A DNA stretch of 64,000 nucleotides from an uncultured Nitrososphaerales archaeon (GCA_963695855.1 CAVOHZ010000010.1:1632001-1696000), one strand, 5' to 3'; positions 35,365-57,290 are shown, numbered from the stretch's first letter. Made by a program: numbers and translations. The notes: a model not told the origin generated them from the letters alone.

Positions 35365-35409
35365 ATGGAGAGGATGGGATTTGAACCCGTTACTGCTAGT
35401 CATGGGATT
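35365..35409 (-). repeat. tRNA 3'-end-like motif, copy A (possible att site)
   Basis: Minus strand GGGTTCAAATCCCATCCTCTCCA = T-arm plus acceptor 3' strand. Confidence 0.7.
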
Positions 35410-35832
35410 GCTCTGATGAAACAAGATATTATATTAACTCTTACGAACTAACTAGCTGAAGTCATAAAGAGAATATTCTCAGCTATAGCTTTTGCTGCTT
35501 ATCTGAAGAGTCAAAATTATATTGTTACTTCTCCTGTTCACAAATAATCATAGTAATAATTCAATTAATTGACAATTGTTGGATTAAAAAAGCAATTTAG
35601 TAAGTAAAAAATCTAAATTAATTTTCTTATTTTTTTATGAAATGTCATATCATAGGTAAAATGTAATATCACTTATTTTGTCAATAAAGCTAAATAATAA
35701 CTGTTTTCATCATCTCATAGTTAAATGTAGTTTATAAAACTATTATCCTATGTAGGTATTAATAGATTTTTCTTCCAAGTGATGTTTATTTCCAAAAAAT
35801 TATTATATTAATTTTGTATAGATCTGTCCTCT

Positions 35833-36387
35833 TTGAAATCGAATTATAAGAATACTATCGGTATCTTGGGGTTAATTATATCTTTTTTTGGCACCATCTT
35901 CTTTGGCTTAGGAACAATATATAGATCTGAAGAATCATTTTCATCATCTTTTCTAATATGTATTATAGGAATAATATTAGTAGGGTGGTGGCTTAAGCAC
36001 GTAAAAAGAATTGGAATAAAGATTGCAATGACTATTTTGTTAATGGGTCAGTTATTAATATTTTTATTTCCTGAAAGTATTTTCAGTTTAGATAGAAATT
36101 ATGTTAACAATATGACATTTTTTGTTTTTATAGTCTTCCTCATTGGCATTATTGTGTCTATTAAATGTATTAGAAAAAGATATAAAATACGTCAAAACTT
36201 TTCAAAATCTATAAAGAATCAGATACTTCAAAAACAGAAACACAAATGTGCAGTATGCAGAGAAATGCCTCCATTATTTCACTTTGATCATAAGGATGGA
36301 AATAGATCTAATAATGGTTTAAAGAATTGTCAGGCTTTATGTCCAAATTGTCATTCAATAAAAACATTAAGACATATAAGAAGATAG
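35833..36387 (+). CDS. Membrane-anchored HNH endonuclease-domain protein
   Basis: 4 TM helices then CAVC...FDHKDGNRSNN...QALCPNCH. Confidence 0.85.
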   Translation: MKSNYKNTIGILGLIISFFGTIFFGLGTIYRSEESFSSSFLICIIGIILVGWWLKHVKRIGIKIAMTILLMGQLLIFLFPESIFSLDRNYVNNMTFFVFIVFLIGIIVSIKCIRKRYKIRQNFSKSIKNQILQKQKHKCAVCREMPPLFHFDHKDGNRSNNGLKNCQALCPNCHSIKTLRHIRR

Positions 36388-36499
36388 AAAAAATGATATA
36401 TAAAATTAAAATCAAGGAAATTAGTTCATTTACTTTTTTACATGATTTGGTGCTGTTAGAAGTAATATATCCGATTTTAAATGAACCCTTATTTTGATT

Positions 36500-36870
36500 G
36501 TTACATTTATAGATGAACGGTAACCTAATCCAATTCTATACATACTTTGGATTAGATTTTTATTTTTTGTAAAGAAAAAATCACGAAGACATTCTGTTCT
36601 GTGAAATACTGTATTACTCTTTCTTTCCTTTCAATTAAACTTTTTTTCTAAAGGTCCGTGCAACTGATCTTTTAGATCTAGAAAATACATTTCTATGTAT
36701 ATCATGTGCCACCATCTGTGTATACGACATATCTTTCATACTTGTCAATTAGTAAATACATAAAATTATCTGCCACAAACATGTTTGTTCCCTTGGAAAT
36801 ATGTATTCCAAGCACAGATTTGTGGTGCTTCAATTACAAACCCAAAATCAGTAATGATAATCCCATTAGA
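36500..36870 (-). pseudogene. Degraded IS6 transposase remnant
   Basis: Similar to 34200-34400 (GIHIS, YTDGGT) with stops and frameshifts; limits approximate. Confidence 0.65.
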
Positions 36871-37467
36871 ATATGATACAGCTAAATCCATTTTCTTAAA
36901 TTAATAACCTCGTTAAAGTATTTCATACAAAATTAAAGTGTTAAATATCATAATGTCGTATAATCTACTAACCACTGAATAATTTGTCTATAGCGAATCT
37001 CTGTAGCTATATCCTTCCACAATCTAATGCCAACATAATGCCTCGTTACAACCTATGGACAACTTCGATACTCACATTCGGTGGTGTTGGAGAGAAAGAT
37101 CTAGAATAACTATATTGATATCCAACCATTGCGGCATGGTAGATATCTTTAATTACTTTCACAAACTCTCCAACGACATTCTTAAGTTTCAAGTTTGAAT
37201 TTAAGGGCAATATGATAAATCAACAAGTCTAAAAAAGTTAAAAGTAAATACAGAATAAAAGACAAGTATGAATTATCATCTAATTTAAGGTTGCTTGAAG
37301 AAAATCAATTATTACTATTCAAACAAAAAATAGAGCAAGATAAAGCATGTAAAAGTACACACGATTCTTATAGAAAATGTCATCTTAATTAGAATTATTT
37401 TCTCAAGATAAACATATTGTATGTATATACATGGATTCAGGGGGGATTTTTGTTTATTTGTTTTTAT

Positions 37468-37605
37468 TTATTTGATCTTGATTTCCATTGTCGGTTCTTC
37501 CTCCAAGTCTTTTTCTTTTCTTGTCGCAAAGAACTTGAATACTAATACTGCTGCTGCTAGTGCTAAACCACTTACAGTTGATAGAAGAAATATTTCACAA
37601 CTCAC
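37468..37605 (-). CDS. 45-aa single-TM micro-protein (not in ORF track)
   Basis: MSCEIFLLSTVSGLALAAAVLVFKFFATRKEKDLEEEPTMEIKIK. Confidence 0.45.
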   Translation of the reverse strand: MSCEIFLLSTVSGLALAAAVLVFKFFATRKEKDLEEEPTMEIKIK

Positions 37606-37665
37606 TTATCTTACATATTATATTAAACAACAAATTATTTTAATATTTTCTCAAAATTGAACTAA

Positions 37666-38555
37666 GAGTTTATCCCAAAATTAACCTCTATATACAATAA
37701 GGCTATTGGCTAGTTGTACAAGACCAAGATAGTTCTCATCTTTCTTTTCATATCTTGTAAATAATTTCCTAAATCTATTGTTATGTCATGAATTTGTTCT
37801 TTCTACAACCCATCTCCTTGTTGGCTGTTTATTGTTGTGTTTCTTTTTTTCTCTTCTAAATCGTATGTGAGGAATGTATCCTCTCTTGGTAATTTCTTGC
37901 TCTACTTCTTTGGAATGATATGCTTTATCAAGACATAGATTCTGTTTCTTTATCTCATCCGATTTGTATGATGGTCTTCTGATTACAATATTATCAATTG
38001 TATTTGTTGCAACAGTGGCATCATGAGTATTTGCAGATATTATAATTGCAGACAAAGGAATGCCATCATTATCTGTTAGAATATGTCTTTTGGTTCCTAA
38101 TTTGCCTCTATCAGTTGGATTATGTCCAGTCATCACTCCCCTAAAGGCGATTTTACAGATATACTATCAAGTGATTGCCAGTTCCATCTCATTCCTTTCC
38201 TGGTATCATATTTTTGTAGCAATCTTGTCCAGACCCTATGAAAAATACCTGATTGCCTCCATTCTTGAAATCTTCTATGACATGTTGAACCAGAACCATA
38301 CTCTTTAGATAACATTTTCCATTGACAGCCAGTTCTGAGGATAACATTATCCCATCAATTACTTTTCTATATGGAACAATTGGCCTTCCTATAGTGTTAC
38401 TTGGTTTCTATTCTAGTAAAATATTTTTAATCTCATTCCATAAATCGTCAGGAATACGTGTAATTGTTCTAACAGACTTTTTACTCTTAATCAACATTAC
38501 CATGTATGATATAAAACTAAAGAGCTATATTCCTATCTATTTTTGGGATAGGCTC
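37666..38555 (-). mobile_element. IS5-family (IS1031/IS427-like) element with disrupted transposase
   Basis: TIRs GAGTTTATCCCAAAA / GAGCCTATCCCAAAA with TAA flanks; GSGSTCHRRFQEW, DRGKLGTKRH, LDKAY, RWVVERTNS*; frameshifts and internal TGA. Confidence 0.88.
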
Positions 38556-38629
38556 TAAGTATATCAAAGGATTAATTTTTATTTATTTATACGACAAATT
38601 TTTTTACTAATTTATTTTATACATTTTAT

Positions 38630-38791
38630 AAAATAAGTTAGTTTATTAGTGTTTATTATTATCTATATTTTGGGGTCCAGTACTATTATTGTTACTGTGG
38701 AGTAAGAGTTTCTATCTATCTAATGTTATAATATAAGTGAAAGGTGAAAATATATTTTTATATATATATAATTTTATTGCTCTAGCGATAT
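38630..38791 (-). repeat. ~165-bp inverted homolog of 46013-46177
   Basis: Reverse complement shares TATCGCTAGAG-AATAAAATTATATATATATA, AGATAGATAGAAACTC, CTTACTCCACAGTAACAATA, CCCAAAATATAGAT, ACACTAATAAA. Confidence 0.8.
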
Positions 38792-38829
38792 CTCTTACCA
38801 ATCTTAGATAAAACGAAGTAAGATACACC

Positions 38830-39057
38830 ATGAAGATAATACATTTGAAATTTAAGTACTTGCAAAGAACTGATGAGAGAAGACATACCTTTACTACAAA
38901 ATGGTGTCCTCGTTGCCTGGAAGTAGGAATTTTTGTTCAATTGGGTCCGCGCCTTTACAAGAAGGAGGAATTAATTGACGGTGAATTACCACACGACTGT
39001 TATTACTGGTTAGAGTGTCGTGATTGCGGATATATAGTCAAAGATTATTTTAATTAG
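38830..39057 (+). CDS. Small zinc-finger protein
   Basis: WCPRC...LGPRLY...WLECRDCG. Confidence 0.65.
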   Translation: MKIIHLKFKYLQRTDERRHTFTTKWCPRCLEVGIFVQLGPRLYKKEELIDGELPHDCYYWLECRDCGYIVKDYFN

Positions 39058-39237
39058 TTAATTAGTATATCATTACGCTAGTGATATCTAGAATTTTCCT
39101 TCAATGTGGTTCAAAAATGTTATTTCATTTAGAATATTTAAGATGAAATTCCAATATTATATAGTATGTCTTGTATGAAGTTATGAAGGACGAAAAGAGT
39201 TATCTATAAGACAACATGAAAGATATTGACTTTCATA

Positions 39238-39435
39238 TTATTGTGATGTTTTCAAATTTGTTGAAATAGATTCAATGTTATACAGAATTAAGTTTATTGA
39301 TAAGATATCTACCTTAGAATTGGTGTTAAAATCTACAAATTTTTCTTGGGTTTGACCAAATACTACATTTAAGGTTAAACCTATGATTACTAAAATTATT
39401 GAAATTATAACTACATATAGATTGAACCTTTGCAT
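39238..39435 (-). CDS. Small secreted protein or fragment
   Basis: Signal-peptide-like N-terminus ending VFGQ. Confidence 0.4.
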   Translation of the reverse strand: MQRFNLYVVIISIILVIIGLTLNVVFGQTQEKFVDFNTNSKVDILSINLILYNIESISTNLKTSQ

Positions 39436-39662
39436 TTATTCGCTGATCGAGTTAATCGAATAATTGATATAAGGTAGAGTCTTTGTATATGATAAAAATT
39501 CATTTCGTTTTTTTTTTAAAAATTTTTAAATTCTTTATCATATTTGTCTAGTTATTTTAAAATTTAAACTAGAATATACTGTATTTAATTGTATATAACG
39601 AAAGGAAAAGTACATAGTTAATAGTATTAATCTTAATATCCTTAGTATTCCTGTAGATAACC

Positions 39663-40109
39663 ATGTCTACAAATACAAATGAAATTGCAAAGTCAATAAA
39701 TAAATTTCAAGATGAATCCAGAAAGATATACGAAAATAATATTGAAAGAATAAATCAATACCAGAACCAAATTATTGATACAAGTAAACACATTGCTGAT
39801 AACTATATTGAATTACAAAAGAATACAGTCAATATTTATCAATCGGCATATAGTCAAATCCTTGAAAATTTATCCCATTCATATTGGAAGGATTCAAATG
39901 TTCCAGAAAGATTTACTGATGCATATAATACAATCAACAAAAATATTCTTGATAATATTACCGATACAACAAATTTCATCAATGAAATTGTTTCAAGAAA
40001 TATAGAAACGGCCAACAAATCTATTGAATATGCACAAAGATATTTCAACGATACAACTCGAAATTACTTCAACTATATCAGAAAATTAGAAAGACCTTAC
40101 AACAGATAA
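39663..40109 (+). CDS. Amphipathic helical protein (phasin-like)
   Basis: N/Q/Y-rich helical repeats; function inferred only. Confidence 0.6.
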   Translation: MSTNTNEIAKSINKFQDESRKIYENNIERINQYQNQIIDTSKHIADNYIELQKNTVNIYQSAYSQILENLSHSYWKDSNVPERFTDAYNTINKNILDNITDTTNFINEIVSRNIETANKSIEYAQRYFNDTTRNYFNYIRKLERPYNR

Positions 40110-40655
40110 ATCCTTCATTTTTTGTACTATAATAATCTGTATTGTTATATTCTGATATTTTTTAAATTATAGATTTTTTTATTTATTTTATTTATCAATG
40201 GCAATTTAAAATTTCATTTTTTTCAATAATAAATATATTCTCTTAATATAATCATCTTCTAAAGTCATCTTTATCGAGATTAAGGTTTATTATATATATC
40301 ATTTGTATAATCAGAATTGTTACCAAATTCTAAATGTTAAAGGAGTTTATACTGATCGTCAATAATTTTTTTATCCGTAATTTATAACAATCTATTATGG
40401 TGCTATTTGATTTTGTCGTTTCTATTGAAAATTAAATATCAGAAAAGTCATCATATTTTGAATATTAGCAAATATCACATATTTCAATAAACTTAAAAAC
40501 TTAAATTAATAATTAAATATTTCATTTTAGACTAGGATATAAGAATAAACTATTATATAATATCAATCTATTTTTCTAGTTTCTAATTTTTTAAACTTTC
40601 AAAAATTGAAGTTTTATCTTCCTGAAATTTATCTATAAGTTTTTTAATAGAATTT

Positions 40656-41084
40656 TTGATTCTTAGACTTCGACCATATGAAATCAAAGTAGTCCTTGTT
40701 GAGCCAGGAGTTATTAATACTAATTTTGTGTCAAATATTAAATTTCCCAATAAAACGAATGATAACAAATCACAAGAAACTTTAATGAAACAAGAAAAAT
40801 CAGAAACTAATTACTTTAGTAATGATATTAAGAAAAAGAATTCTTTATATTATTCTAATACTATAGATAGATTTCTATCTTATTATTATCCTTCTATGAA
40901 GAATGCTTCACCACCAAAAGAAGTTGGTACTGTAATACTTCAAGCAATTAAAAATGCTTTAAATTCTTCAGAATCATTGTTCAGATATGTAGTAGGAGAA
41001 GATGCTAAAACTTTTGCACAAGCAAAAAAGAATATGTCTGATTCACAATTACATGAGTTTATTTCTTATAGATTACTAGGTTAA
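40656..41084 (+). pseudogene. C-terminal fragment of a short-chain dehydrogenase (SDR)
   Basis: LRPYEIKVVLVEPGVINTNF and RYVVGEDAK; Rossmann N-terminus absent. Confidence 0.75.
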
Positions 41085-41743
41085 GTATATTACCATTCTA
41101 AACCTATGAAATGTTGAAATATCTTTCGTCATTTTTACTAACAGGAAAAGCACTTTTTGATGTTGGTAGATACAGAAAAATATCCCGTTGAAAAGAAGTT
41201 TTCAGTATTGTCCTATTAAAGGCAATAGATTGTAACTCAAAGAGAAGAGATGAAAGAATTTCCTTTATTGGACTGAACACTGGTACGGTAAAGACTGACA
41301 GAGTAAAAAGATAGCACCGGTAACAGAGCATGAAGAAGACAGGTATATGGAACAGGAGTTGGAGCATGTAATAGAGACAGATAGTAGCCTACCAGAAAAG
41401 TGAACAGTATGAAGTCTACTATATTCTTTTCAGCGAGACCGATAGAGGAAATAATTGTTAAATCAACATATGACAATAAGGGACAGATTCGATTTATGTG
41501 AAACACCAACAGTTAGAAACCATCAATTCTCTTATGACTAATTCGTTAACACTTCATGTGATGAATTGTGATGAATGCATTTCGATGATAATGACGAATA
41601 GTGCACCTGCTAGATACGAATACGATAAGAAACAACAGAAGAAGAAAGATGCCGAAGTTTAGAAATAGAACAAGCAGTATTCCTAGCTTGTTTTTGAGAA
41701 ATTTTCCATAAATAATTAAATAAAACCAAATCGTAATAAATAC

Positions 41744-42019
41744 ATGAGATATATACTAATAATTTTATTATTAGCGGCTACTGGTGTATATTTTAGTCTA
41801 CCAGTTATTTCTGCACAATTTACTGCCGATATAATGATTACAGATATGCGTACTACTCACGCAATTCTGGAAAAAAATGTAGGTGAAGTAATTACATTAC
41901 TAAAAAATAACAATACGGCTGAAGCCCTAAACCTGCTCGACGGTGTGAAAATGAAAGTTCATCACATGAATTCGATGTTCGATGATCTTGTGTGGGAATT
42001 GTCCAATAGAGGACATTAA
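41744..42019 (+). CDS. Small secreted helical protein
   Basis: Signal peptide ending ISAQ; helical body. Confidence 0.65.
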   Translation: MRYILIILLLAATGVYFSLPVISAQFTADIMITDMRTTHAILEKNVGEVITLLKNNNTAEALNLLDGVKMKVHHMNSMFDDLVWELSNRGH

Positions 42020-42251
42020 TCTACTGTATGATAATAAAACCCTTTATTATTATTTTTCTCATAGAAGTATAACTATAATAATAATTAATTATTTGGGAAC
42101 CGAGTTACTTTCTATTTCTTTTTCCTTTTGTATTTTTTCCTAATCAAGTATTAACAATTTTCTATTATTTTTGTTGTTACAAAATTTATCTAATTTAGTA
42201 AATTATGAAAATTTAAAGAAATAAAAATAAGTTAAAAAAAAATTCTTATTA

Positions 42252-42887
42252 TTATTCTACTTTAATTTCTTTTCCTTTAGGCTTTGTCTGTTTCTTTTTG
42301 TTAAATACTATTTCCAGAATTCCGTTATTGTATATAGATCTGACAGTTTCAATATCTGCTTCTGTTGGTAAATCTATTAATTTACGATATTTTCTTTGTG
42401 GATCATCACTTGATATTTCTACAGAATTCTCATAAGCATTTATCTTTATATTTTCTTTTTTTATACCTGGCATTTCTACTACGATTTTGACTTCTTTATC
42501 TGTAGATGATACATCAACTAAAGGTTCTCTTTCTGAAGAAATTGATGGCTGTTGGAAGAATCCTCCATTTCCAGCAAAATGAGATTTTACGTTACCAAAT
42601 TCTCTTATATTTGGCTTTCCATCAGATCCTATGGTCATTGAATATCCATATACTATTGGACCTACTTGTCTAACTTTTCCACCTTCTGGTGTTTCGTATT
42701 CTTTAACCAAATCTTTTGGTACTCTGTTTTCAATATTTTTAAATTGTTCAGAAAATGTTCTTTCAATGTCTTTTCTCATTTCATCAAATTCTGTAAATAT
42801 ATCGTCAAAGTTCCAGCTGCCAAAAGTCTTTCGTCCACTAAAAAATTTCTTATACCACTCATATGGAATTATATCTCTATTACTCAT
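42252..42887 (-). CDS. Small heat shock protein Hsp20
   Basis: GPIVYGYSMTIGSDGKPNIREFGN, REPLVDV, EMPGI, YNNGILEI; ATG at 42887. Confidence 0.93.
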   Translation of the reverse strand: MSNRDIIPYEWYKKFFSGRKTFGSWNFDDIFTEFDEMRKDIERTFSEQFKNIENRVPKDLVKEYETPEGGKVRQVGPIVYGYSMTIGSDGKPNIREFGNVKSHFAGNGGFFQQPSISSEREPLVDVSSTDKEVKIVVEMPGIKKENIKINAYENSVEISSDDPQRKYRKLIDLPTEADIETVRSIYNNGILEIVFNKKKQTKPKGKEIKVE

Positions 42888-42954
42888 TGTAATATTCATC
42901 TGTAAATTGTAATATACATTACAATATATAAACCTTATGACATAATTTAGTTGT

Positions 42955-43260
42955 AATAGACTAACATATACAATTATCCTAACTCTTCTTTCACCTGTTT
43001 TTCCCCTTAGAATTAAGATAGCTCCTTTGGTATCAATCAATATATCCTTATTAGAAAGAGTTAGAAATTCTTCTGGTCGAGCACCACTTTCATACATACA
43101 ACCGAGAAATACTTTCTTTTGTAAATTTGGTGCGTTTTCTACTAATTCTGTTAATTCTTCTTCTAAATATTTTTCAATATTTTCTAATCGGATCTCATTA
43201 TTATCATATCTCATAAACTGTAAAAGCTATTTGTCAGCATGTTTATTTCGTGTAATGTCA
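42955..43260 (-). pseudogene. Tyrosine recombinase (integrase) fragment
   Basis: MYESGARPEEFLTL...DI...GKTGERRVRI; catalytic C-terminus missing. Confidence 0.8.
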
Positions 43261-43759: not shown

Positions 43760-44868
43760 TAGATTATTTGTCTGTTCTTTTTTATAATCTTCAATTCCAT
43801 ATGCTTCAAGAATTGATTTTCAAGATTCATTGCCAAAGTAATGAAGATAGACTTGAGGCATTCTACTGGACATTGACGATCCAGCATGATCTCTCAAAGT
43901 ATGCTCTTTCAAAATGAAAGACTTTGAAGTTAGAGCAGAACGTCTCTGAATATAAGGAGCCCAAGGTTTTGTTAACAAATTTCTAATGTATGATTTATCT
44001 GCTTCTGGAATGTTAGAATCTTCAAGTAACTTTGGGAAATAGCGTTTTTTATAGCTACGTGTATACTGTTTGTATAATGCATTTAAGTTGTTGTCCAAAA
44101 TTACTATCTGCTAAAGATATAAAAGACATCAGGATTGTTTGCAAGAGGATGAGAATCAATCCAACCTTTGACATAGGGAATTGAAAAAATAAGAGGTTTA
44201 GTCTTGTTTTCTACTATGTCAACTTCTGCATATTCTGTACCATTAGATGATACTTTGAACATGATATCCTTTAATCTTAGGGAAAGTAATTCATGTGACT
44301 TACATGAAGTATCATTTGCCATCGCATGATAACAACGATATCTTTTTTCTGGACAATATTTCAAAAATAGTGCATGATCTTTACTGGTCCATATATCAGA
44401 GGCTTTGTAGGTTGATGTTTGCTTTCTTGAAAGTTGTTTGATCTTGCATACATAGAGGAGTAATGCATTTCTTTTGTTCTAGTTTGCCATTATTTTTAAC
44501 TTTATTATATTGATAGTAGTAATTGTATAACCATCTGTCTGGTGTTGTATGTTCCTATTCATTAATCAGTAGGATTATCTGATTCTGTTTTCTTTAACGA
44601 AGCTAAATAGGAAATTATATCTTTTGTTATTTTTGAAAGTCTTTGTAACGTAGACGTTTATTGAATAAACAAATGACTTTGATATGTGTTGATATTGTAC
44701 TGGATTTAACATTCTAGATATTATATTGTGGTTCAAGAAATTTGTAAGGATCATTAATGTTTTGTAGATTTATAGAAGACATTTTTTTAAAAAGAGAATT
44801 GTAATAATAGTATGAAATCGCTTTTTAGTTAATAACTGGATCTTTTTTCTAAATCTACGATTATGATG
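43760..44868 (-). pseudogene. Second tyrosine integrase, heavily frameshifted
   Basis: IGTYNTRQ, KYCPEKRYRCYHAMANDTSC-HELLSLR, KPWAPYIQRRSALT, LRDHAG...MPQVYLHYFGNES. Confidence 0.85.
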
Positions 44869-44987
44869 CTGTTATTATTATTACTATTACTCAGAACACT
44901 TGCATAACTTGCCCATTACACTTAACAACATAAATTTTGTTTTCCTTAGACTCAGTATATATATGTCTCATAGTGTTTTTCAGGGTA

Positions 44988-47804: not shown

Positions 47805-47850
47805 TATATCAAAAAATAATATTAACTGGTTTATTTCTTATTCATTTTAA

Positions 47851-48293
47851 ATGCCATTTGGATTTGGAGGAAAGAAAGAACCTGAAGTTGAAAAACCTGA
47901 GTATAGATTTGAAGTTAAATATTTAGGAGGTCATAAAGCATTCCCAGCAAAAAAGTCAGTAGATACAAAGATATCAGTTTATTCAGATAGAATAGATATC
48001 GAGAAGCCATTAAATCTCAATATCCCTTATTCAAAGATCACAAAAATTGAAAATATGGACGAGAAGAAAATTTCTGCTTTAAGGGTAGTGGGCCTAGGAT
48101 TAGTTTTTCTTCCATTGGCAATACATTGGCAATAGTTGGTGCCTTGTGGAAGAAGAGAAAGGTCTATACTGTTTTCGATTATGACGATGGTTTAGATACT
48201 CAAACTATGGTATTTGATTTTGAAAAACATCTAGAAAAAATGCAACCAATAATTTATCATAAAGTTATGCAGGAAAGATCAAAATATAAATGA
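47851..48293 (+). pseudogene. PH-like/membrane protein broken by an 11-bp duplication
   Basis: KYLGGHKAFP; CATTGGCAATA x2 near 48113-48134; removing one copy restores ...PLAIVGALWKK...SKYK*. Confidence 0.7.
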
Positions 48294-48531
48294 GTTTCAA
48301 AACAGTCAAGGATTTATTCTGGTACAGAAATGTACCCGATAATTGTATTACTTATACATAGATGAAAGTGTAGATACAGGAGATTATAAGGAAAAAACCT
48401 GCACTATAGGTGGTAGTTCACGATTTCTAACTTTAGGTGGTATAGAGATAGAGAAAATTATTCAGAAATAGTTGTCAGGCTATGGACTTTTACGAAGCAC
48501 GTAACAGTATACGGTTTCATTACGATTGATT

Positions 48532-49203
48532 TCAGGAAGGAGGATCAAAACGAATTGATCTATTTGATATCTTCTGCAGATCCTCTTTTTTCTTTCCGCT
48601 TTCAGTATATTTTCTAGTATATATTTTAGCAAAAAAATCAATGTGTTCTTGGCTATCCATCAAGGCCTTCGGCATTCCTCTATCCCTCATCATTACATTA
48701 CCAAGTAAAAATCTCCAAAAAATGGAAAATAATTCATCAATTAATTCCCATCTAAAATTATTTGGATCTTCGTTTATATCCCAATGAAGTAGCGATTCCA
48801 GGAATCTATTCAATATGGCATGTCTGTTCGTATATTCAGCATTGAATTTAGAGCGTTCTTCCTTGTACTTATCTGGTCCAACTCGAATAAATCCAAATAA
48901 TTCTTTTATATCATCTTCAAATACTCCCCTCAAATCAGGATACTTTTTCAAGTATTCAAAAAAGAATATCATATTTGCCATGGATTGAAAAATGAATTTG
49001 TCCAGAACATATCTCTTTTTTCTGTCCAGATTTCTTTTATTTATTTTCTCATCAACATTACTGCTATCGTCGCGCCCCGCATTTTTTTCGGTTTGCGATG
49101 TTTCAGCGATTTGATAATATTGTAACATTTGGTTCATGAACTCCGCTAATGTGGGAGAAAATGTGTAACCTTCCTTACTAGATTCACTTGTGTAAGCACT
49201 CAA
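48532..49203 (-). CDS. Hypothetical protein
   Basis: 223-aa ORF divergent from the RHH/Topo unit. Confidence 0.65.
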   Translation of the reverse strand: MSAYTSESSKEGYTFSPTLAEFMNQMLQYYQIAETSQTEKNAGRDDSSNVDEKINKRNLDRKKRYVLDKFIFQSMANMIFFFEYLKKYPDLRGVFEDDIKELFGFIRVGPDKYKEERSKFNAEYTNRHAILNRFLESLLHWDINEDPNNFRWELIDELFSIFWRFLLGNVMMRDRGMPKALMDSQEHIDFFAKIYTRKYTESGKKKEDLQKISNRSIRFDPPS

Positions 49204-49256
49204 TTTATGTAACAGTTATTGTTATAGTTACGCATTTTATAAATCATTTGATTGTT

Positions 49257-49421
49257 ATGAAAAATATAACAACGAACCAAAAATATACAACAATTCGGAT
49301 AACCACAGAAACCCATGATCTATTGGCTGATCAGGGAAATATGAAAGATTCCTATGATACTGTCATCAAGCGACTGATTGAAAATCAAAGGGCCAAGGAG
49401 AACCCATATGTTCCGAAATGA
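49257..49421 (+). CDS. RHH-like regulator
   Basis: YTTIRIT-ETHDLL...G...DSYDTVIKRLI. Confidence 0.7.
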   Translation: MKNITTNQKYTTIRITTETHDLLADQGNMKDSYDTVIKRLIENQRAKENPYVPK

Positions 49422-49525
49422 GCGAGACATTGAAGCCCTGGGTACTTCGCGAATGTCCATTCGAATACGGTGTTTTGTGCAGGAAGCAATGGACGGCAGA
49501 GTGAACATTTTCACAAAAATTTAGC

Positions 49526-52363
49526 ATGACAGATTTGTATCAAAATGTGAACCCTCGAGCATTTAATATGATGCTCAGTACAAATAGTAAATCACACATA
49601 CGAGTGATAGACAGTAATACTCCTGCTACCAGTAAGGTCAGAACTGAAGAAATCTTTTCATCTGAGGACCAGACAACCGATTATCTTTCTATCCAAGGAC
49701 TTAATACTAGATTCGGACTCGACGGAACTGGTTTTGAAATTTTCATAATAAAGGAAATGATGGATAACGCGCTAGACTATATTGAACAAAATGCACAAAA
49801 ATTTGCACAATTAAATGAAGGAATACCATTTATCGATGTAGTTGTTGCCGAAGAAAATGATGAAGTTGTAAAAATCATTGTTACAAATTCTAACGCAAGT
49901 AATGAAAATATATTTTCTGAGGACCAAATTCAGAAAATCTTTAATCTTAAAGAATACTACAGCAGCAAAAGATACAGGCATCAAATAAATCGTGGAGAGT
50001 TGGGTGATGCCTTCAAGGCCATATTATGCATTCCTTACGCCATTGCCGTCAATGATCACAGTAACATCTATGAAAACTGGGATTATCCGTTAAAGATCAA
50101 TATTTCCAATAAAAGACTAATTGAAGTTAAAATCGATAATTTCGATAAAATTAGAAAAAAGGAAAATGTACGGGTAAAGGCAGAGTTTAAACAAATTTCT
50201 GATGAAACTAAAAATCAATCCTATTTTACAGAAATCACCGTATATATTCCAAAAATCTCAGTAAATTATGATAAAATTAGGCAAATTCTAAAAAGATATG
50301 CAGTTATAAATACACATATTATTTTTGATTTCAAAATTCCAAGCAAAGAAACAGGTATATACGAATACAGTTGGTTCTTAACACAGAAACTAAAACGTGA
50401 TTGGAAAAATAGACTAAGTATATATTCTTATTCTTTACCAGATTTTAGAGATTTAATTCTCAGTATTAAAGATAGAGATGATCTAAATGTGTATGATGAT
50501 TTAATCAGACCACATTTTAGAGAAGGTGGATCACTTCCAAAAGAGGACCAATTTAAGACATTGGCCTATAAGGATTTAAAATCTGATATGAACAAAATCG
50601 AGGTTGTATACAATAAGTTAAAGAATAATCAAAGATCAATAAAACATCAATCCTCACGTCGTATTCCATTCCTGGACGTTCCTTTTGACATGGAGAAAAC
50701 ATCCAGAGAAAACGGGTTAAGAGTACGTCTACAACAGGTATATGATATTGACAAAGATAGTTTTGTGTATAAGAAATTTGATAGATGTTATTATGAAAAC
50801 CTAGAGAAAGGTGTAGAATTTCCGTATATGTTTGAAATTGCTATTGCAAAATCACCAATGTTTCCAAAGAAAAGATTGACATTAATTGAATCTTTAAATT
50901 GTTCTCCTGGCTTGTATTCTGATTCATTATTTCATGCGAATGAACCAATTTTTAACTGGACGCAAAAAAATGGACAAGTATGGAATGGATATAGTATTGC
51001 TGGGGTTCTCGAAAATTGCGGATATTCAGTTGAAAACGAAAAGAAACATAAGAAAATCCATAATCTAATTCTTATTAATTTAATATCTCCTAGAATAGAT
51101 TATAGTAGTCATAGTAAATCAAGTATCAAATTAGAGCCATTCGCTGAAATGACTCAGAAGGTTTACACTTTTTGTAAGGAATCACATAGAAAAAAAACCA
51201 GTGATGATAACACATTAAATAATATGCACTATTTAAGAATCATATTACAAGATCGATATTATGCTGTAAAGAACAATCCAATACTGAAAACACCAAAATA
51301 CAGATGGACTCAAAGCACCGTATACTATATTTTGAGAAAGATTCTTGATGAAAAAGGGATTCCAATTGCAGATAGAGATTACATTACTGGAGAAATCAAA
51401 GTTGAATGTGAACAATTAGGAATGCGATTAATAGAAATAGGCAGACCGCTTAAAAGACACGAATTGGGGATAATTGCAGCAGAAAGGGCACAACTGTTTT
51501 TTGATGGCCAGGCTCTAGGAATTAGTTTTGACCGAATAGAAGAGTTGATGAAAAAAGGAACGGATCTCCTAATTATAGAGAAAGAAGGTATAGCCGAAAT
51601 ATTCATGGAATTTGCAAATAAACGAGGGATTGCAATCTTAAACTCTCGTGGGTTTGTTACAGAATATGCAGAAGAATTATCAGAACTTGCTCAAAAAGAA
51701 GGATGCAATATCGCTATATTAACAGATTTAGATTCATCTGGATTGCTTATTTCATCCAAACTACCTAATGCTTATAGAATAGGTATTGACTTTAGGACAC
51801 TTCTTTATTTTGAGGATATAGAACAGGAGACTGTTGAGGAGCAAGTTACTAAAAAGAACAAGAACGAAAATGAGAACGAAAGTGATAGTCATTTATCAAA
51901 ATTAAAAGATCTGGCTAAATCAGAAATACCATTGCCTTACAGAAATAATCCTGAGGAATGGGAGGAGTTAATAGAATATCTGGATACTGGAATGCGTATA
52001 GAAATAGATAGTATTCGTACCCAACTTAATAACGATAATGAAAGATTTTGGGATTACATACTTAAAGAATTAGATAGAGAGTTCCCAACGAGGAATTATA
52101 ATAGAGCCATAGAGGTAAAGGAATATGTTATGCCAAAAATGATAGACGATTTTATTTCTGCTGTAGGAAATATATTGACCGAAGCGACTTCAGAAAAACG
52201 GGAGGAAATAATGAACGACTTGGCAAATACAGAACATTTCTTTGATGATATAAAAGTTGAAAGCGAAGAAATTGATGAACAACTAGGATCAGTTTCCGAA
52301 TCTGATGAAATTAAAAAGCAAATTGCTGAACAAGTTAAAAAGTTTTTGAAGTTTGAAGCATAA
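49526..52363 (+). CDS. Fused type IIB topoisomerase (Topo VI B+A; Topo VIII-like)
   Basis: GHKL KEMMDNALD and RGELGDAFKAIL; WHD TQSTVYY; TOPRIM IIEKEG, SRGF, TDLDSSG, RIEIDSI. Confidence 0.8.
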   Translation: MTDLYQNVNPRAFNMMLSTNSKSHIRVIDSNTPATSKVRTEEIFSSEDQTTDYLSIQGLNTRFGLDGTGFEIFIIKEMMDNALDYIEQNAQKFAQLNEGIPFIDVVVAEENDEVVKIIVTNSNASNENIFSEDQIQKIFNLKEYYSSKRYRHQINRGELGDAFKAILCIPYAIAVNDHSNIYENWDYPLKINISNKRLIEVKIDNFDKIRKKENVRVKAEFKQISDETKNQSYFTEITVYIPKISVNYDKIRQILKRYAVINTHIIFDFKIPSKETGIYEYSWFLTQKLKRDWKNRLSIYSYSLPDFRDLILSIKDRDDLNVYDDLIRPHFREGGSLPKEDQFKTLAYKDLKSDMNKIEVVYNKLKNNQRSIKHQSSRRIPFLDVPFDMEKTSRENGLRVRLQQVYDIDKDSFVYKKFDRCYYENLEKGVEFPYMFEIAIAKSPMFPKKRLTLIESLNCSPGLYSDSLFHANEPIFNWTQKNGQVWNGYSIAGVLENCGYSVENEKKHKKIHNLILINLISPRIDYSSHSKSSIKLEPFAEMTQKVYTFCKESHRKKTSDDNTLNNMHYLRIILQDRYYAVKNNPILKTPKYRWTQSTVYYILRKILDEKGIPIADRDYITGEIKVECEQLGMRLIEIGRPLKRHELGIIAAERAQLFFDGQALGISFDRIEELMKKGTDLLIIEKEGIAEIFMEFANKRGIAILNSRGFVTEYAEELSELAQKEGCNIAILTDLDSSGLLISSKLPNAYRIGIDFRTLLYFEDIEQETVEEQVTKKNKNENENESDSHLSKLKDLAKSEIPLPYRNNPEEWEELIEYLDTGMRIEIDSIRTQLNNDNERFWDYILKELDREFPTRNYNRAIEVKEYVMPKMIDDFISAVGNILTEATSEKREEIMNDLANTEHFFDDIKVESEEIDEQLGSVSESDEIKKQIAEQVKKFLKFEA

Positions 52364-52381
52364 TCGGCATTAAAATTAACT

Positions 52382-52436
52382 CCAATTTACCAAGTTTGGC
52401 AAGGAAATCCTTGCAAATTGGCTTGGATTTCCAAGC
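52382..52436. promoter_or_regulatory. Twin hairpins after the topoisomerase gene
   Basis: GCAAGGA-AA-TCCTTGC (52399-52414) and GCTTGGA-TT-TCCAAGC (52421-52436); outer CCAATTT/AAATTGG stem. Confidence 0.55.
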
Positions 52437-52533
52437 AGATTTATTCAGTTTTGCGGTAAAATTCCCCTAAATTAGTTTACTGGGTTTAATGGAGATATTA
52501 GTTCTCTGATACGAAATTCTTTCAAGGCTTTTT

Positions 52534-52662
52534 ATGAGTCAAAAAAATATACTCATAAAAATAAGTGAAGAAAATGCCAACAAATTGGCAGAACGTGGAG
52601 AATTCAGGGATACCTGGAATACGATAGTTACCAAGGTTTTAGCAGAGGTTGATGAAAAATGA
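52534..52662 (+). CDS. 42-aa RHH-like regulator (not in ORF track)
   Basis: MSQKNILIKISEENANKLAERGEFRDTWNTIVTKVL; resembles 49257-49421. Confidence 0.6.
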   Translation: MSQKNILIKISEENANKLAERGEFRDTWNTIVTKVLAEVDEK

Positions 52663-52847
52663 TGAGTCAATCGCTGGCACCCTGGAAGATATCGGAATGT
52701 TATGGGCCTCATGAAGAATGTCCGATTGTGTGGCGACACAAGTATCTCGACCATGAAATTATTTGCGTCTGTTCGTGTGGGCACGGGCAAAAAAATGATA
52801 AGACTCGCACCTCTTCCCTTGCATCGGGTTCCTTGGTTGAGCGGTAA
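52659..52847 (+). CDS. Small Cys/His-rich protein
   Basis: CYG-HEECP...CVCSCGH; ATGA overlap with upstream gene. Confidence 0.5.
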   Translation: MMSQSLAPWKISECYGPHEECPIVWRHKYLDHEIICVCSCGHGQKNDKTRTSSLASGSLVER

Positions 52848-52881
52848 TCCTCTTGTAGCGGTTAATGGGGAGATGTAAAAA

Positions 52882-53124
52882 TTGAATGCAAAAAATGGTG
52901 CCCCATGCGATGAGAGCACCGGCAACAATGACGCAGTAACAGTAGAGCCAATTAATAATACACGTCACAGCAATAAAAAATTATCGCTAGCGATACTTGA
53001 AGATAAAATCAATCTTATTCAAGTCTCTCTCTGCAAATTAAGACCGGATATTAGGAACATAGTCAGAGAAGAAATCAAGAACGTGGTCAGTGATGAAATC
53101 CTACGTGTACGTGGTTATCTTTAA
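52882..53124 (+). CDS. Hypothetical coiled-coil protein
   Basis: 80-aa ORF in the same unit upstream of the helicase. Confidence 0.45.
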   Translation: MNAKNGAPCDESTGNNDAVTVEPINNTRHSNKKLSLAILEDKINLIQVSLCKLRPDIRNIVREEIKNVVSDEILRVRGYL

Positions 53125-53269
53125 CCAACCAACCAACCAACCAACTAATTTAGTTCGAAATGTCCAATAAGTGCAAGTGCTGGGTTTGCTCGTTTTTAAC
53201 TGAATGTGCGGACCAAAAAGTATATCAACAATCTACACACATGCAGAAAGTTCTAGGTAAGAAGAGGTC

Positions 53270-54751
53270 ATGACTTCAACACCAGGAGGTTTTGATTCCG
53301 AATATACCAAAAACGCACATTACGATGTTTTTGGTACACGTATGGCTGATTTTAGTGATGCAAGAAAGAAAAAGCAGGAACTGATAGAGGACGGTACAAG
53401 ATTTGTCATGGCCCGACATATTTTTTTGACAGTTGAGGAAACAAAAGAAATTCTATACTATGACAAGGATAAAGGAGTTTATGTATCTGGGGGAGAACTA
53501 ATAATTGAAAAAGACCTAGAAGATATATTTGAATTTAAATTAAGAGTTGTAGACATATCAGAAATAAAAGGCCACATAATGAGGAAAACGTACGTAAAAA
53601 TGGAGGAATTTGATGCTGATCTTGATATTTTAAACATGAAAAACGGCCTATACAACTGGAGGACAAACAAATTGAAGCCACATACACCCGAATACTATTC
53701 TATGATACAGTGTGGTGTCAAATACGATTCCAGGGCAAAACCAAAATACTTTATGACATTCCTAAAGGAAGTTTTGTATGCTGAGAACATAAGAACAGCC
53801 TTGGAGATAATTGCATATACCTTCATACGTTTACATTTGTTTGAGTGCTACTTTATTTTAGTAGGCACCGGCTCTAACGGTAAGAGTGTGTTTGTAGGTG
53901 TGTTATGTGCTCTACACGGGAAGGATAATACCGCTAATGTCTCTTTGAAGGAACTGGTAGAAGACAGGTTTGCTCTTGCGGACCTAGTTGGAAAGAATGT
54001 AAATGTAGATACTGAACTATCAAGCAGCAGTATAAAGGATATGTCTATTCTCAAGAAACTTACAGGAAATCAACCGATAAGGGTACAGAAGAAAGGACAA
54101 CATGCCTTTGAGTCTGTGCTATGGGCCAAGCAGATATTTAACGCCAACCAGTTACCGGTAACAGATGATCATACAGACGCTCACTTTAGAAGAGAGATAA
54201 CGCTATCGTTCCCATATCAGTTCAAGGAAAAAAAAGATGATGATGATACTATAATAGGTACAGTAGAGGAGGATGAACCCAATGTCAAGACGGCAGATAT
54301 TCACATGTTAAAGAAACTTACAACCAAGAAAGAACTGTCAGGGATTTTCAACCTTGTAGCCAAGTCCATGAGGGCAATAGATCGCAATAAGAAGATATAT
54401 GCAGATTCTAAATCTATTGATGATAGAAGAGAAAAAGCGGAATTAACGAGGGACCCTATAGGTGCATTTGTCGATATCTGTAAGGTACAGCCAATAGCAC
54501 CAACATCAAACAGTTTTATGTTAAAAGAGGATCTCTACAAAATATTCAAGAATTTCTGTGAAGTGAAGAAGTTACATGTACCAAGTTATGGGGAATTTGC
54601 TGAAATAATGAGGAAAGAACACGGTTACAAAAATAAACGAAAGATGATACTTGGAAAGAAGGAAACTGTCTGGTATGTTGAGGTGAATAATCCAACTGGA
54701 GAAGAGGAAGTCGAAAGTGAAGATGTAGCAAATAACAACATAAACAACTAA
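53270..54751 (+). CDS. Phage/plasmid P4/D5-like SF3 helicase
   Basis: D5-N-like LNMKNGLYN...HTPEYY, Walker A GTGSNGKS, KKLTG, IFNANQLP, HFRR; no primase domain in this ORF. Confidence 0.9.
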   Translation: MTSTPGGFDSEYTKNAHYDVFGTRMADFSDARKKKQELIEDGTRFVMARHIFLTVEETKEILYYDKDKGVYVSGGELIIEKDLEDIFEFKLRVVDISEIKGHIMRKTYVKMEEFDADLDILNMKNGLYNWRTNKLKPHTPEYYSMIQCGVKYDSRAKPKYFMTFLKEVLYAENIRTALEIIAYTFIRLHLFECYFILVGTGSNGKSVFVGVLCALHGKDNTANVSLKELVEDRFALADLVGKNVNVDTELSSSSIKDMSILKKLTGNQPIRVQKKGQHAFESVLWAKQIFNANQLPVTDDHTDAHFRREITLSFPYQFKEKKDDDDTIIGTVEEDEPNVKTADIHMLKKLTTKKELSGIFNLVAKSMRAIDRNKKIYADSKSIDDRREKAELTRDPIGAFVDICKVQPIAPTSNSFMLKEDLYKIFKNFCEVKKLHVPSYGEFAEIMRKEHGYKNKRKMILGKKETVWYVEVNNPTGEEEVESEDVANNNINN

Positions 54752-54798
54752 AAATATTTTTAATATCCTATTATTAACTAATTACTGATTGTTGTAAA

Positions 54799-55050
54799 GT
54801 GGCTAGAAGTAATATTCCAGGGATTGATAGCAGACTTACAAGGCTGGTAGATCCTTCATCAGAAGCAGCAGGTAGAACCATGCAACTAACAGCAGAGACT
54901 TATCAGGTATTGAAGGAACACGCATCTCGATATTATTCAAGTCCCCGTTATGATGAAGTGTTAGTTAATCTGGTAAAGTTCTACGAGGAGAAGGAGGGTC
55001 CAAAACACTACGCTCATTATAACAACGTCAATATTATGACGATTGATTGA
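54799..55050 (+). CDS. Small RHH-like protein
   Basis: RTMQLTAETYQVLK...YDEVLVNLVKFYE. Confidence 0.55.
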   Translation: MARSNIPGIDSRLTRLVDPSSEAAGRTMQLTAETYQVLKEHASRYYSSPRYDEVLVNLVKFYEEKEGPKHYAHYNNVNIMTID

Positions 55051-55107
55051 TTAGTTATAATAATTAATTCAAAATAAATAAAAAAGAAAAAAAATTGATG
55101 ATTATAT

Positions 55108-55818
55108 TTAGGGCGGTCCTATAATGAATTCAACTCCTGCGTCTTCAAGACATTCTATCAAATCATCAACAACTTCTGGATCTACACCAGGTAGAGCCAA
55201 CCTGAAAGCATCTTCAGGAATGACTGATCCATCTTCAGGATTAACAAATAGTATACAAAATCGTTCGATCGATTCAACTCCAAATAGTTCTACAAAAGTG
55301 GTAATTTCGTCTGGAGATAGAAATTCTTCAAAACATTCTTCACATGTTCTTTGTGGAGTACTAGTTCTTATCTGTTCATTCACATTAACATTTACACATA
55401 TGTTTACAAGGTTTTTCTCGAAGTTTATTTTATCAAAGCCATTTTCATTTTGTGCGTTTGCTGCCTCTGGACCCGCTCCCTCATTTGTTGCTGCAGTAGC
55501 AGTAGTGTCTTCAGGTATTTGGGTAATATCTATTCCATTGACATTTATGTTACTGTTTACACAGGATATTTTCTGGATATCTCCATAACTCTTTTTTTGA
55601 TGGTTATTGTCATAACCGTACTTGTTGTCGTCTTGGTAATAGTAGTTGCTATTATATCCATATTGATCACCATAGTAGGAATGTCGATCGTCATCATAAC
55701 CTTCACTGCCATATGGCATTGCTTGTGCGTTTGTAATTGTTGATGGGTTTAGAGCCAGTATACTTGTCGCTAGTATTGCCCCTAGTATAGAAGCAAATAC
55801 TATCATTCTATTGCTCAT
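55108..55818 (-). CDS. Secreted surface protein, paralog 1
   Basis: Signal peptide, Y/D-rich linker, IQKISCVNSNINVNGIDIT...NLVNICVN, Cys-containing helical C-domain. Confidence 0.8.
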   Translation of the reverse strand: MSNRMIVFASILGAILATSILALNPSTITNAQAMPYGSEGYDDDRHSYYGDQYGYNSNYYYQDDNKYGYDNNHQKKSYGDIQKISCVNSNINVNGIDITQIPEDTTATAATNEGAGPEAANAQNENGFDKINFEKNLVNICVNVNVNEQIRTSTPQRTCEECFEEFLSPDEITTFVELFGVESIERFCILFVNPEDGSVIPEDAFRLALPGVDPEVVDDLIECLEDAGVEFIIGPP

Positions 55819-56027
55819 TACATTGTTAAATGTGAATTTATTATATCTAAGGTTGGAAGGAACATTATCTAATCCTGTAATATTTTATCATGCTGAATTA
55901 TTGAATATAAGAAGAATAGCAATTGATCTACAAGTACAATATTAGATGTTATAATAATCTCAAGAATTCTGTTTTGTTAGTTTGTTAGTTAATTAATTAC
56001 CAAGAATTGGTACAAAAATAAAAAAAG
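55814..56027 (-). repeat. ~210-bp upstream/promoter repeat, copy 1
   Basis: Near-identical to 57518-57728; first ~105 bp also at 57039-57143. Confidence 0.9.
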
Positions 56028-56031
56028 TGGA

Positions 56032-57042
56032 TTAAGGTCCCAATGGACTGTTCTGGCAGACTACGAATGCTTTGAGGGAAATACCTGATCCAACTCCAAC
56101 TCCTGTTACATTCCAGCCTGTTCCATCTGTTGTCATACGAGATGTTTCTACGGTAGATGCCCCTGCTTTTGTAAACCCTCCACCGGTTACAACATCATCG
56201 TCTTCACAGTTAGCGATTGAACTTAAGGCAATGCCTGTTGTATCAGCAGTACCTTCATTTTGATAGGTAGTTGGTGTGAATGCTATATTACAAACCTCTG
56301 CAGTTGCGTCTACAACCCATACACCTTCCAAGTCACTAAGCGGTGGACATTGTTCTGCTGGGGTTGCTGCATCACAGAGTTGTGGGTCTGTTACTATTGC
56401 ACTACCCAAGTTAGAATCTGCTTTACATGTAAAGGTTGGAACATCTATACTACAATTTGCATCAGTTGCTTCTACTACCCATACACCTTCCAAGTCAGTA
56501 AGTGGTCCACACTGTTCTGCTGGGGTTGCTACATTACACAGATCTGGGTCTGTTACTTTTGCACCTGCACCCAAGTTAGAATCTGCTTCACATGTAAACA
56601 AGGTGACTTCTTGAGGTGGTTGTGAATCAGCAATACCTCTTGTCTGTTCGTTGCCATTAGCATTTACACAAACGTTTACAAGGTTTCTGTCAAAGTTTAT
56701 TTTATCGAGTCCGTTACCAATCTCTGTATTTGCGGCTTCTGGACCTCCTTCATTTGCTGCTTCTAAGGCAGTATTGTCGCGAGGTATCTCGGTAACATCT
56801 ACACCATTTACGTTGAGGTTACTATTTCTACAATTTATTTTCTGGATATCTGTGTAAGAACTCTTTTGATCTTTTTTATCATAACTATACCTATTGTCGT
56901 CTTGGTAATAGTTATTGTCGTATCCATACTGATTGTCGTACATTTCCGCTTGTGCATTCCATATCATTGATGGGCTTAAAGCCAATAGACCTGCGGCTAC
57001 TATCACTGTGATAGAAGCCAGAACTATCTTGTTATTGGTCAT
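56032..57042 (-). CDS. Secreted surface protein, paralog 2 with two ~55-aa Cys-rich repeats
   Basis: Same N-terminal module as paralog 1; FTC-ADSNLG...ATPAEQC-PL-DLEGVWVV x2; C-terminal VVTGGGF...WNV domain. Confidence 0.8.
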   Translation of the reverse strand: MTNNKIVLASITVIVAAGLLALSPSMIWNAQAEMYDNQYGYDNNYYQDDNRYSYDKKDQKSSYTDIQKINCRNSNLNVNGVDVTEIPRDNTALEAANEGGPEAANTEIGNGLDKINFDRNLVNVCVNANGNEQTRGIADSQPPQEVTLFTCEADSNLGAGAKVTDPDLCNVATPAEQCGPLTDLEGVWVVEATDANCSIDVPTFTCKADSNLGSAIVTDPQLCDAATPAEQCPPLSDLEGVWVVDATAEVCNIAFTPTTYQNEGTADTTGIALSSIANCEDDDVVTGGGFTKAGASTVETSRMTTDGTGWNVTGVGVGSGISLKAFVVCQNSPLGP

Positions 57043-57143
57043 TACATTCTTAAATACGAATTTAATATATCTGAGGTTGGAAGGAACATTATCTAATGGT
57101 GTAATATTTTATCATGCTGAATTATTGAATATAAGAAGAATAG
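57039..57143 (-). repeat. Upstream/promoter repeat, short copy 2
   Basis: CATTACATT...AGGTTGGAAGGAACATTATCTAAT...AGAAGAATAG. Confidence 0.85.
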
Positions 57144-57245
57144 AAAATGATATTTAGGTGGAAAGAAAGTGAAATCCTAGCATTACAGCAACCAATACAG
57201 GTCCACGAAAGACCCAAGATAAGAAATAATATCAGCATGACAAGC

Positions 57246-57290
57246 ATAGAGGGGATGGGATTTGAACCCGTTACGTGCATTCAATGGTTT
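57246..57290 (-). repeat. tRNA 3'-end-like motif, copy C (possible att site)
   Basis: Minus strand GGGTTCAAATCCCATCCCCTCTA; flank resembles copies A and B. Confidence 0.7.

Follow-up and report, generated by a model that had tools for sequence, protein, structure and literature searches.

The 64,000-nt stretch analysed in this work (hereafter the window) spans C10:1632001-1696000 in the 3.55-Mb genome, assembled in 11 contigs, of an uncultured Nitrososphaerales archaeon, and it carries three copies, named A, B and C, of a 24-nt motif which resembles the 3' end of a tRNA. With a probability that we place at roughly 0.8, these motifs are displaced 3' ends of a tRNA-Val(UAC) gene, left by elements that inserted at that gene by means of a tyrosine integrase. 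The three copies are not equivalent and have three separate histories, and the island in which they lie is a system of attachment-site scars of the ordinary, familiar sort found beside tRNA genes.

The motif copies, the tRNA-Val(UAC) gene and the probable element ending at copy B

An IUPAC pattern search of the window gave three exact matches to the motif, at 35365-35388 (A), 45962-45985 (B) and 57246-57269 (C), all on the plus strand, against a mean of 0.00 in dinucleotide-preserving shuffles, none of 100 of which held three or more. Read on the minus strand, each copy runs from a T arm into an acceptor 3' strand and a final A, the T arm of copy B being perfect (ATGGG/TTCGAAT/CCCAT). Alignment of the three loci extended the similarity about 25 nt further upstream on this strand, into sequence that is not tRNA-like, and little beyond. 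These observations agree with an earlier reading made from the sequence alone (the sequence-only reading), which had also noted that the 5' half of a tRNA was absent. Accordingly, ARAGORN detected no tRNA gene in the window and, when run over the whole genome with introns allowed, none within the window span; the sole Rfam match in the window at E ≤ 1 was the 17-nt T arm of copy B, and a search of the whole genome with RF00005 matched none of the motif copies. Neither a 5' half nor a full cloverleaf, the marks of a split or an intron-bearing tRNA, was found at the copies. Copies A and B are separated by 10,597 nt, B and C by 11,284 nt, and C and the tRNA gene described below by 13,885 nt; no meaning was found for the near-equal spacing of the copies.

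The sequence-only reading had stated beforehand that an intact tRNA with the same 3' end, located downstream, would make the motif ordinary. Such a gene was identified by ARAGORN in the whole genome, 7.1 kb to the right of the window. It is a tRNA-Val(UAC) on the minus strand at C10:1703131-1703207 (RF00005 score 64.5 bits, E 1.3e-13) whose 3' end is the motif, and the finding is for this reason considered an ordinary one. The 5' acceptor strand of this gene is GGAGGGG, the stem that had been regarded as unfamiliar for archaeal tRNAs, and therefore the unrecognised stem belongs to a real archaeal tRNA. An uninterrupted ORF (open reading frame; C10:1701552-1703063) begins 68 nt downstream of the tRNA gene and encodes a tyrosine integrase of 503 aa, with matches to PF00589 (34.6 bits, cut-off 27.1), to the SAM-like N domain PF13495 and to phrog_1 (E 4.2e-20).

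The tRNA locus and copy B agree without mismatch over 36 nt at most (window 45952-45987, equal to C10:1703121-1703156), a stretch formed by the final 25 nt of tRNA-Val(UAC) and the next 11 nt, the exact runs shared with the tRNA by copies A and C being of only 10 and 14 nt, respectively. In addition, the arm beside copy B holds TATAAACCCGTGAAT, which is the exact reverse complement of the 15 nt found after the intact tRNA, 25 kb away. Of these 15 nt, 8 fall outside the shared 36 nt, and the sequence after copy B itself matches at only 7 of the 15 positions. The two loci are read as the halves of one element-borne site, composed of arm, core and arm, which integration would have parted, and copy B is probably, to judge from these repeats, the far end of one integrated element of 25.2 kb. 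Arms homologous to that of copy B also precede copies A and C, the dispersed copies B2 and D1/D2 located elsewhere in the genome, and remnants in three related genomes (G003, G014 and G031). An intact target tRNA at one end, a tyrosine recombinase beside the site and a direct repeat at the far boundary, which are among the marks of a tRNA-associated island, were all present.

A search of sequencing runs yielded seven, all of them as Logan metagenome contigs with a best share of 0.26, and of these X1-X4 were compared with window positions 44500-58500. One contig from each of three runs, which come from two studies, fits the right part of the window and diverges from it at 45952-45954, the left flanks being different; these breakpoints lend weak outside support to the boundary at copy B. 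A joint of 45986 to 57249 in X3 was not counted, its shorter side having 21 letters and the cores of B and C being alike.

From the sequences, repeats, arms, neighbouring genes and variation among relatives, all of them observed, we infer the recombination itself and the order of events as follows. A circular element would bear a site composed of an arm P, the core and an arm P', and the integrase would recombine this site with the tRNA gene over its final 25 nt and about 11 nt beyond. As the element brings an identical end, the tRNA gene would be kept whole and the old end would be displaced to the far side of the insert. Copy B would be this far end for the 25.2-kb element that starts at the tRNA gene outside the window, copy C would be an older, diverged copy, now internal and part of a short module duplicated elsewhere, and copy A would have been captured by an IS6-like insertion sequence (IS) and moved along with it. 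Later inserts, deletions, IS activity and duplication could then have produced the present mosaic.

The features of the window related to copy B are the following.

45952-45987, minus strand: copy B, repeated exactly over 36 nt and proposed as the far attachment site (attR) of the 25.2-kb element
45988-46027, minus strand: P arm (element side) beside copy B, equivalent to the similarity into non-tRNA sequence noted earlier
45988-64000: left 18 kb of the proposed 25.2-kb element, which continues to C10:1703120 with the integrase and tRNA-Val
53270-54751, plus strand: D5-like primase-helicase, likely the replication protein of the element (PF19263, E 5.2e-20; PF08706, E 4.1e-12)
43793-44621, minus strand: pieces of an integrase pseudogene, which on this strand follow copy B at 1.3 kb
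42252-43214, minus strand: chimeric ORF of 320 aa, an N-terminal tyrosine-recombinase fragment fused in frame to a complete Hsp20 domain

The genes of the 25.2-kb element include the D5-like primase-helicase, which also matches the DNA primase family phrog_864 (E 4.4e-70), an HNH endonuclease, a helicase-methyltransferase, a TerL-like ATPase and the integrase. These same five functions, together with two faint matches to PHROGs of unknown function, were what 22 ORFs of the element gave against PHROGs at E ≤ 1e-5. Capsid and portal proteins were not found in that search, and because of this a provirus label is not claimed. The TerL-like ORF (443 aa, C10:1699540-1700871, minus strand, equivalent to window positions 67540-68871) matches the terminase large subunit phrog_2 (E 1.1e-20) and lies near the HNH endonuclease and the integrase; its homologue in the related genome G012 is located beside the primase.

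The integrase remnants that the sequence-only reading had placed between copies A and B were confirmed by tblastn as three pieces at 43793-44621, which cover residues 95-387 of the intact integrase with 46-57% identity, and a further fragment lies in the chimeric ORF 42252-43214. In this ORF, PF00589 matches residues 18-78 with an E of 3.4e-4, under its curated cut-off, and PF00011 (HSP20) matches with an E of 3.1e-11; the fusion probably arose by chance after decay of the integrase. The three pieces and the chimeric ORF are the remains of an older insert.

At C2:4437-4510 and around C10:1773079, outside the window, two further integrases, 52-55% identical to that of tRNA-Val, stand some 170 nt away from where a different tRNA-like sequence, with the core GGGTTCGAGTCCCACTCCCGGCG, has its 3' end. 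At one of these two loci the upstream arm is a homologue of that found beside copy B. The arrangement suggests a sister family of elements with another tRNA as target, which is the usual picture when a family of elements has changed its tRNA.

Histories of copies A and C

Copies A and C, both with two differences from the tRNA in 23 core positions, and the features around them are as follows.

35365-35388, minus strand: copy A, tRNA-Val 3'-end-like core, a passenger
33957-35513 (right end approximate): IS6/IS240-like unit of 1.55 kb with copy A, as delimited by three-way alignment
57246-57269, minus strand: copy C, a diverged copy of the tRNA-Val 3' end inside the 25-kb element
55108-57042, minus strand: two genes of a repeated family (236 and 336 aa), directly downstream of copy C and without Pfam or PHROG match

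Copy A is the passenger of an insertion sequence and not a boundary of the island. Identical copies of it and of both its flanks are present at C3:256542 and C8:260251, and the unit so defined consists of a transposase gene, an inner end at about 34665-34680 and a 0.83-kb passenger with copy A and 20-nt iteron-like repeats. The transposase ORF (33964-34623, minus strand) matches PF13610, DDE_Tnp_IS240, with an E of 5.8e-10, and the outer ends of the unit are imperfect terminal inverted repeats of 17 nt that match at 14 positions. Target duplications of 8 bp, GAATAATC and ATTTGATA, flank the C3 and C8 units, respectively, so that all the traits of the IS6 family (DDE transposase, terminal inverted repeats and 8-bp duplication) were found, the duplications at C3 and C8 only. 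From the inverted repeat at the inner end, the unit seems to employ another end, located further out. The C3 unit is inserted between CBS/CoA-binding genes and proline dehydrogenase, and the C8 unit between endonuclease V and KaiC. Moreover, in the closest relative, G014, the sequence equivalent to window 32609 is joined straight to that of 35721, after which the genes of 35721-42103 follow with 86-92% identity. As the unit is missing from the same site in G014, copy A is no boundary and the block between A and B is no element.

The 20-nt motif of these repeats, TATTTTAGTCAARTTCAAAC, was found 17 times in the genome with at most two mismatches: six, three and three times in the IS6-like units, and five at C10:1359283-1359435. 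Within window positions 34950-35300, a 124-nt stretch is repeated 99 nt downstream with 98% identity (35015-35138 and 35114-35237). The 20-nt repeats look like an iteron or arm-site array. The unit itself stands in a dense IS cluster (30203-38600) with at least three DDE types, at 30203-31054, 33261-33686, 33964-34623 and 37786-38136; the genome is very rich in insertion sequences and each of these types has many copies in it.

For copy C, we lean towards a remnant of greater age, or a module that was duplicated, lying within the 25-kb unit. Its trailer differs from that of the tRNA, and it stands between direct repeats of about 119 nt (57033-57151 and 57513-57631) that are 93% identical. Both of its flanks are shared with C8:44162 and C8:195471, with 82-89% identity over 0.56-1.0 kb, and with a locus of genome G031. 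Genes from the two sides of copy C adjoin in relatives. In G027, tRNA-Val, an integrase homologue (50.6% identity) and a primase homologue (60-67%) follow one another within 4 kb, the primase about 2 kb from the integrase; both homologues look broken, as the integrase match has one stop and the primase match is in two frames. A stretch of 11 kb in G012 holds a homologue of ORF 46940-47344 together with the primase and the TerL-like gene. Because of this adjacency copy C is taken as internal to the 25-kb unit. A tandem of two elements, one from the tRNA to C and another from C to B, may also account for the arrangement.

Copy C is located about 200 nt upstream of a gene of the repeated family. 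Dozens of genome-wide matches to this 236-/336-aa family, 70-90% identical, were obtained, and by coordinates several members lie within a few kb of PF00589 loci (for instance near C10:318520, 474041 and 1488714 and C8:343586); the family may be a hallmark cargo of the mobile elements of this genome. The 336-aa ORFs that flank copy C on either side are related neither to each other nor to the integrase.

The locus in related genomes and the competing explanations

The genus comparison covered 25 genomes including this one (G000), most of the others being fragmented metagenome-assembled genomes. The core motif (≤2 mismatches) was present in all 25, with one to six matches in each of the others, genes included, and 12 here, among them one tRNA-Val and one tRNA-Leu; this contrast in copy number is weak because most of the other genomes are fragmented. 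On its far side the tRNA-Val gene is neighboured by SHMT, the large subunit of PolD (DP2) and a PcrB-family gene, and it was found beside SHMT on one contig in the five genomes where this could be checked (G000, G003, G011, G012 and G014). The left side of the island is flanked by an SMC-type ATPase and a HerA-like helicase, together with a 400-aa gene that is present in 13 of the 15 genus members sampled. G011 and G001 have 12.3 kb and 10.9 kb, respectively, between this 400-aa gene and tRNA-Val, where the present genome has about 41 kb. An integrase follows tRNA-Val in three of the seven genomes examined (G000, G014 and G027), and the contents downstream of this gene in the relatives were the following.

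G011: metabolic genes
G003: metabolic genes, then two serial remnants, at 6.7 kb and 1.1 kb further
G014: integrase, with B-like and C-like remnants separated by 0.7 kb on a different contig
G001: no integrase found over the 10.9 kb that follow
G027: integrase

The tRNA-Val locus appears to be a recurrent insertion hotspot in the genus. The stretch between B and C (45986-57245) was contiguous in none of the 24 other genomes, a clean empty site matching the outer flank of copy B was not found among the relatives, and a literature search under the presumed genus name gave nothing on this locus among the titles and abstract openings listed.

The conserved left flank includes a cluster of four genes on the minus strand (23095-30090) formed by the SMC-type ATPase (860 aa), a 323-aa ORF, the HerA-like DUF87 helicase (628 aa) and the 400-aa ORF. 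Two of the four genes lack a Pfam match, the 400-aa ORF being one of them. By position, we take this cluster to resemble the archaeal Rad50-Mre11-HerA-NurA repair operon.

Several observations weigh against the explanation by displaced tRNA-Val ends as given here. The sequence after the tRNA in G000 (class 1: TTCAATTCACGGGTTTATA...) follows the tRNA in G001 too, where no integrase was detected in the 10.9 kb downstream. The post-tRNA sequence could consequently be native chromosome and not the P' arm, in which case the inverted-repeat argument for a single 25-kb unit would weaken. The flanks of copy C are conserved at three loci here and in G031, which suggests a duplicated module, or an attachment site left uncut, more than a junction. 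The remnants of G014 have the same order as here, its B-like one degraded and the copy B of G000 perfect, and from this order it follows that part of the array predates the split of the two genomes. The IS unit in the window has diverged ends and no target duplication, the Logan contigs (shares ≤0.26) showed neither an excised form nor a junction of a circle nor an empty site, and the catalytic residues of the integrase were judged by eye only.

The strongest competitor, which we still hold to be improbable, is a literal tandem array in which independent elements (A-B, B-C and C-tRNA) were added successively at tRNA-Val, the B-C one being an element without integrase that could be moved by the integrase of its neighbour. 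Every copy lies downstream of the tRNA in the orientation of that gene, an integrase pseudogene comes after B and an intact integrase after the tRNA, serial remnants are present in G003 and G014, and the stretch from B to C has a replication gene of its own. Arrays at one site are, moreover, stated as known for elements with tyrosine recombinases in a survey of Thaumarchaeota (PMC6563490). However, copy A belongs to an IS unit that is missing from G014, where the genes of 35721-42103 stay beside the conserved flank, no integrase was identified by Pfam between B and C, and homologues from both sides of C adjoin in G012 and G027. In addition, the arms of the tRNA and of B pair together and not with those of C, and C shares an exact run of only 14 nt with the tRNA. 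The sequence-only reading had proposed tandem integrations at one tRNA hotspot with an intact tRNA to the right; the kind of system was correctly recognised, as the intact tRNA-Val(UAC) and an integrase do lie beyond the right end, but the copies do not delimit three blocks of about 11 kb. Such a division is not supported, since A is the passenger of an IS6-like unit and C lies inside a unit with paired ends.

It is far less credible that the motif is a dispersed tRNA-mimic site gathering cargo in an integron-like way, with landing pads over the genome and some of them on the IS6-like unit. Such a site would fit the ten tRNA-Val-like copies (≤2 mismatches) found here beyond the tRNA-Val and tRNA-Leu genes, the conserved arms with dyad symmetry about the core, the presence of one type on a transposable unit and the 20-nt iteron-like repeats beside copy A. 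To examine the dispersed copies, 23 genome matches with at most four mismatches were considered, of which 12 were taken by eye as tRNA-Val or tRNA-Val-like and 11, being other tRNA 3' ends or unrelated-looking, were left out; eight dispersed loci (A2, A3, C2, C3, B2, D1, D2 and E) were also chosen by eye. None of the 56 ORFs of at least 110 aa within 6 kb on either side of these eight loci matched a Pfam tyrosine recombinase (E ≤ 1e-4), and none of the 13 PF00589 loci of the genome lies beside a dispersed copy. As no dispersed copy has an integrase nearby, the integron-like option, which the sequence-only reading had kept open, lacks support. Loci A2 and A3 arose by simple transposition of the IS unit into sites flanked by housekeeping genes and have no insert beside them, and D1 and D2, which share both flanks and are each downstream of a paralogous beta-propeller gene, fit one segmental duplication. 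Neither a recombinase by the sites nor single-gene cassettes were found, the blocks being many-gene mosaics with 8-12 element-type ORFs, and the excess of copies over the fragmented genomes of the relatives is, as said, a weak contrast. It is similarly doubtful, to the point of being a long shot, that the A-type module (IS6-like unit with 20-nt iterons) and the C-type module (before the repeated genes) are portable secondary attachment sites. If they were, target copies so seeded would let integrase-bearing elements and passengers without integrase land elsewhere, and this would be a landing-pad system spread by transposons.

Finally, that the copies are functional RNA pieces, either 3' halves of split tRNAs or tRNA-like processing signals, deserves hardly any credence: B has an intact T arm and all three copies retain the acceptor strand, but the window contains neither a 5' half nor a match to a tRNA model, the genome has a complete tRNA-Val(UAC), the acceptor strands differ among copies, the upstream sequence is shared with attachment-site arms and not with a leader, and the split-tRNA idea was dropped as ARAGORN, Rfam at E ≤ 1 and RF00005 over the genome found no whole tRNA at the copies.

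Meaning of the island and comparison with known systems

If the motifs are displaced ends of tRNA-Val, the variable region of 36-41 kb is explained as the usual product of integration beside a tRNA gene. The analysis also provides exact candidate attachment sites for an integrase family of an archaeal genus, namely a 36-nt core and 15-nt inverted arms, which may help in mapping mobile elements in the fragmented genomes of the genus and possibly serve as a tool for site-specific integration. The sole unusual point is that an insertion sequence captured an attachment-site remnant and copied it to two further loci, and it follows from these IS-carried copies that attachment-like motifs alone cannot mark the boundaries of islands.

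Insertion sequences of the IS6/IS26 family can carry passenger DNA. The unit with copy A resembles them in its IS240-type DDE transposase, its short terminal inverted repeats and the 8-bp target duplications at two loci, and differs from them in carrying neither a resistance nor a metabolic gene: its 0.83 kb of passenger DNA are the remnant of an attachment site, with 20-nt repeats. With integrons, the island has in common repeated recombination sites in the same orientation with gene blocks between them. Unlike integrons, it has no integrase by a primary site facing single-gene cassettes, its sites are ends of tRNA genes, and what lies between them are multi-gene remains.

In the literature on ICESt1, tandem accretion is reportedly accompanied by elements without integrase that are flanked by attachment sites and can be moved by a neighbour. 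Attachment-site copies that follow a single target gene in series, interspersed with integrases that have decayed, are common to that model and to this locus. The differences are that here only the tRNA/B pair is exact and that copy C does not split sets of genes which travel separately.

The integrase is similar to those of SSV type (PMC7253208) in being a tyrosine recombinase of archaea with a tRNA gene as its target. However, the SSV-type integrases split their own gene when they integrate, whereas here the site lies at least 68 nt outside the whole 503-aa ORF, and self-splitting was thus not found.

A likeness of gene content and layout is also found with the integrated elements of Thaumarchaeota, for which tRNA genes are used at 39 of 68 defined sites, all but one in the 3' part (PMC6563490). 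The shared traits are an integrase by a tRNA gene, recombination in the 3' part and a direct repeat at the far end, as well as primase-helicase cargo, many ORFs without known function and internal IS insertions. In that survey, whose main text does not mention the presumed genus, the median length of the direct repeats is 17 bp and no more than seven sites exceed 25 bp (Krupovic et al., 2019, PMC6563490). By comparison with those elements, the present one differs in its exact repeat of 36 nt, which reaches 11 nt past the end of the tRNA, and in the inverted arms of 15-16 nt around the core.

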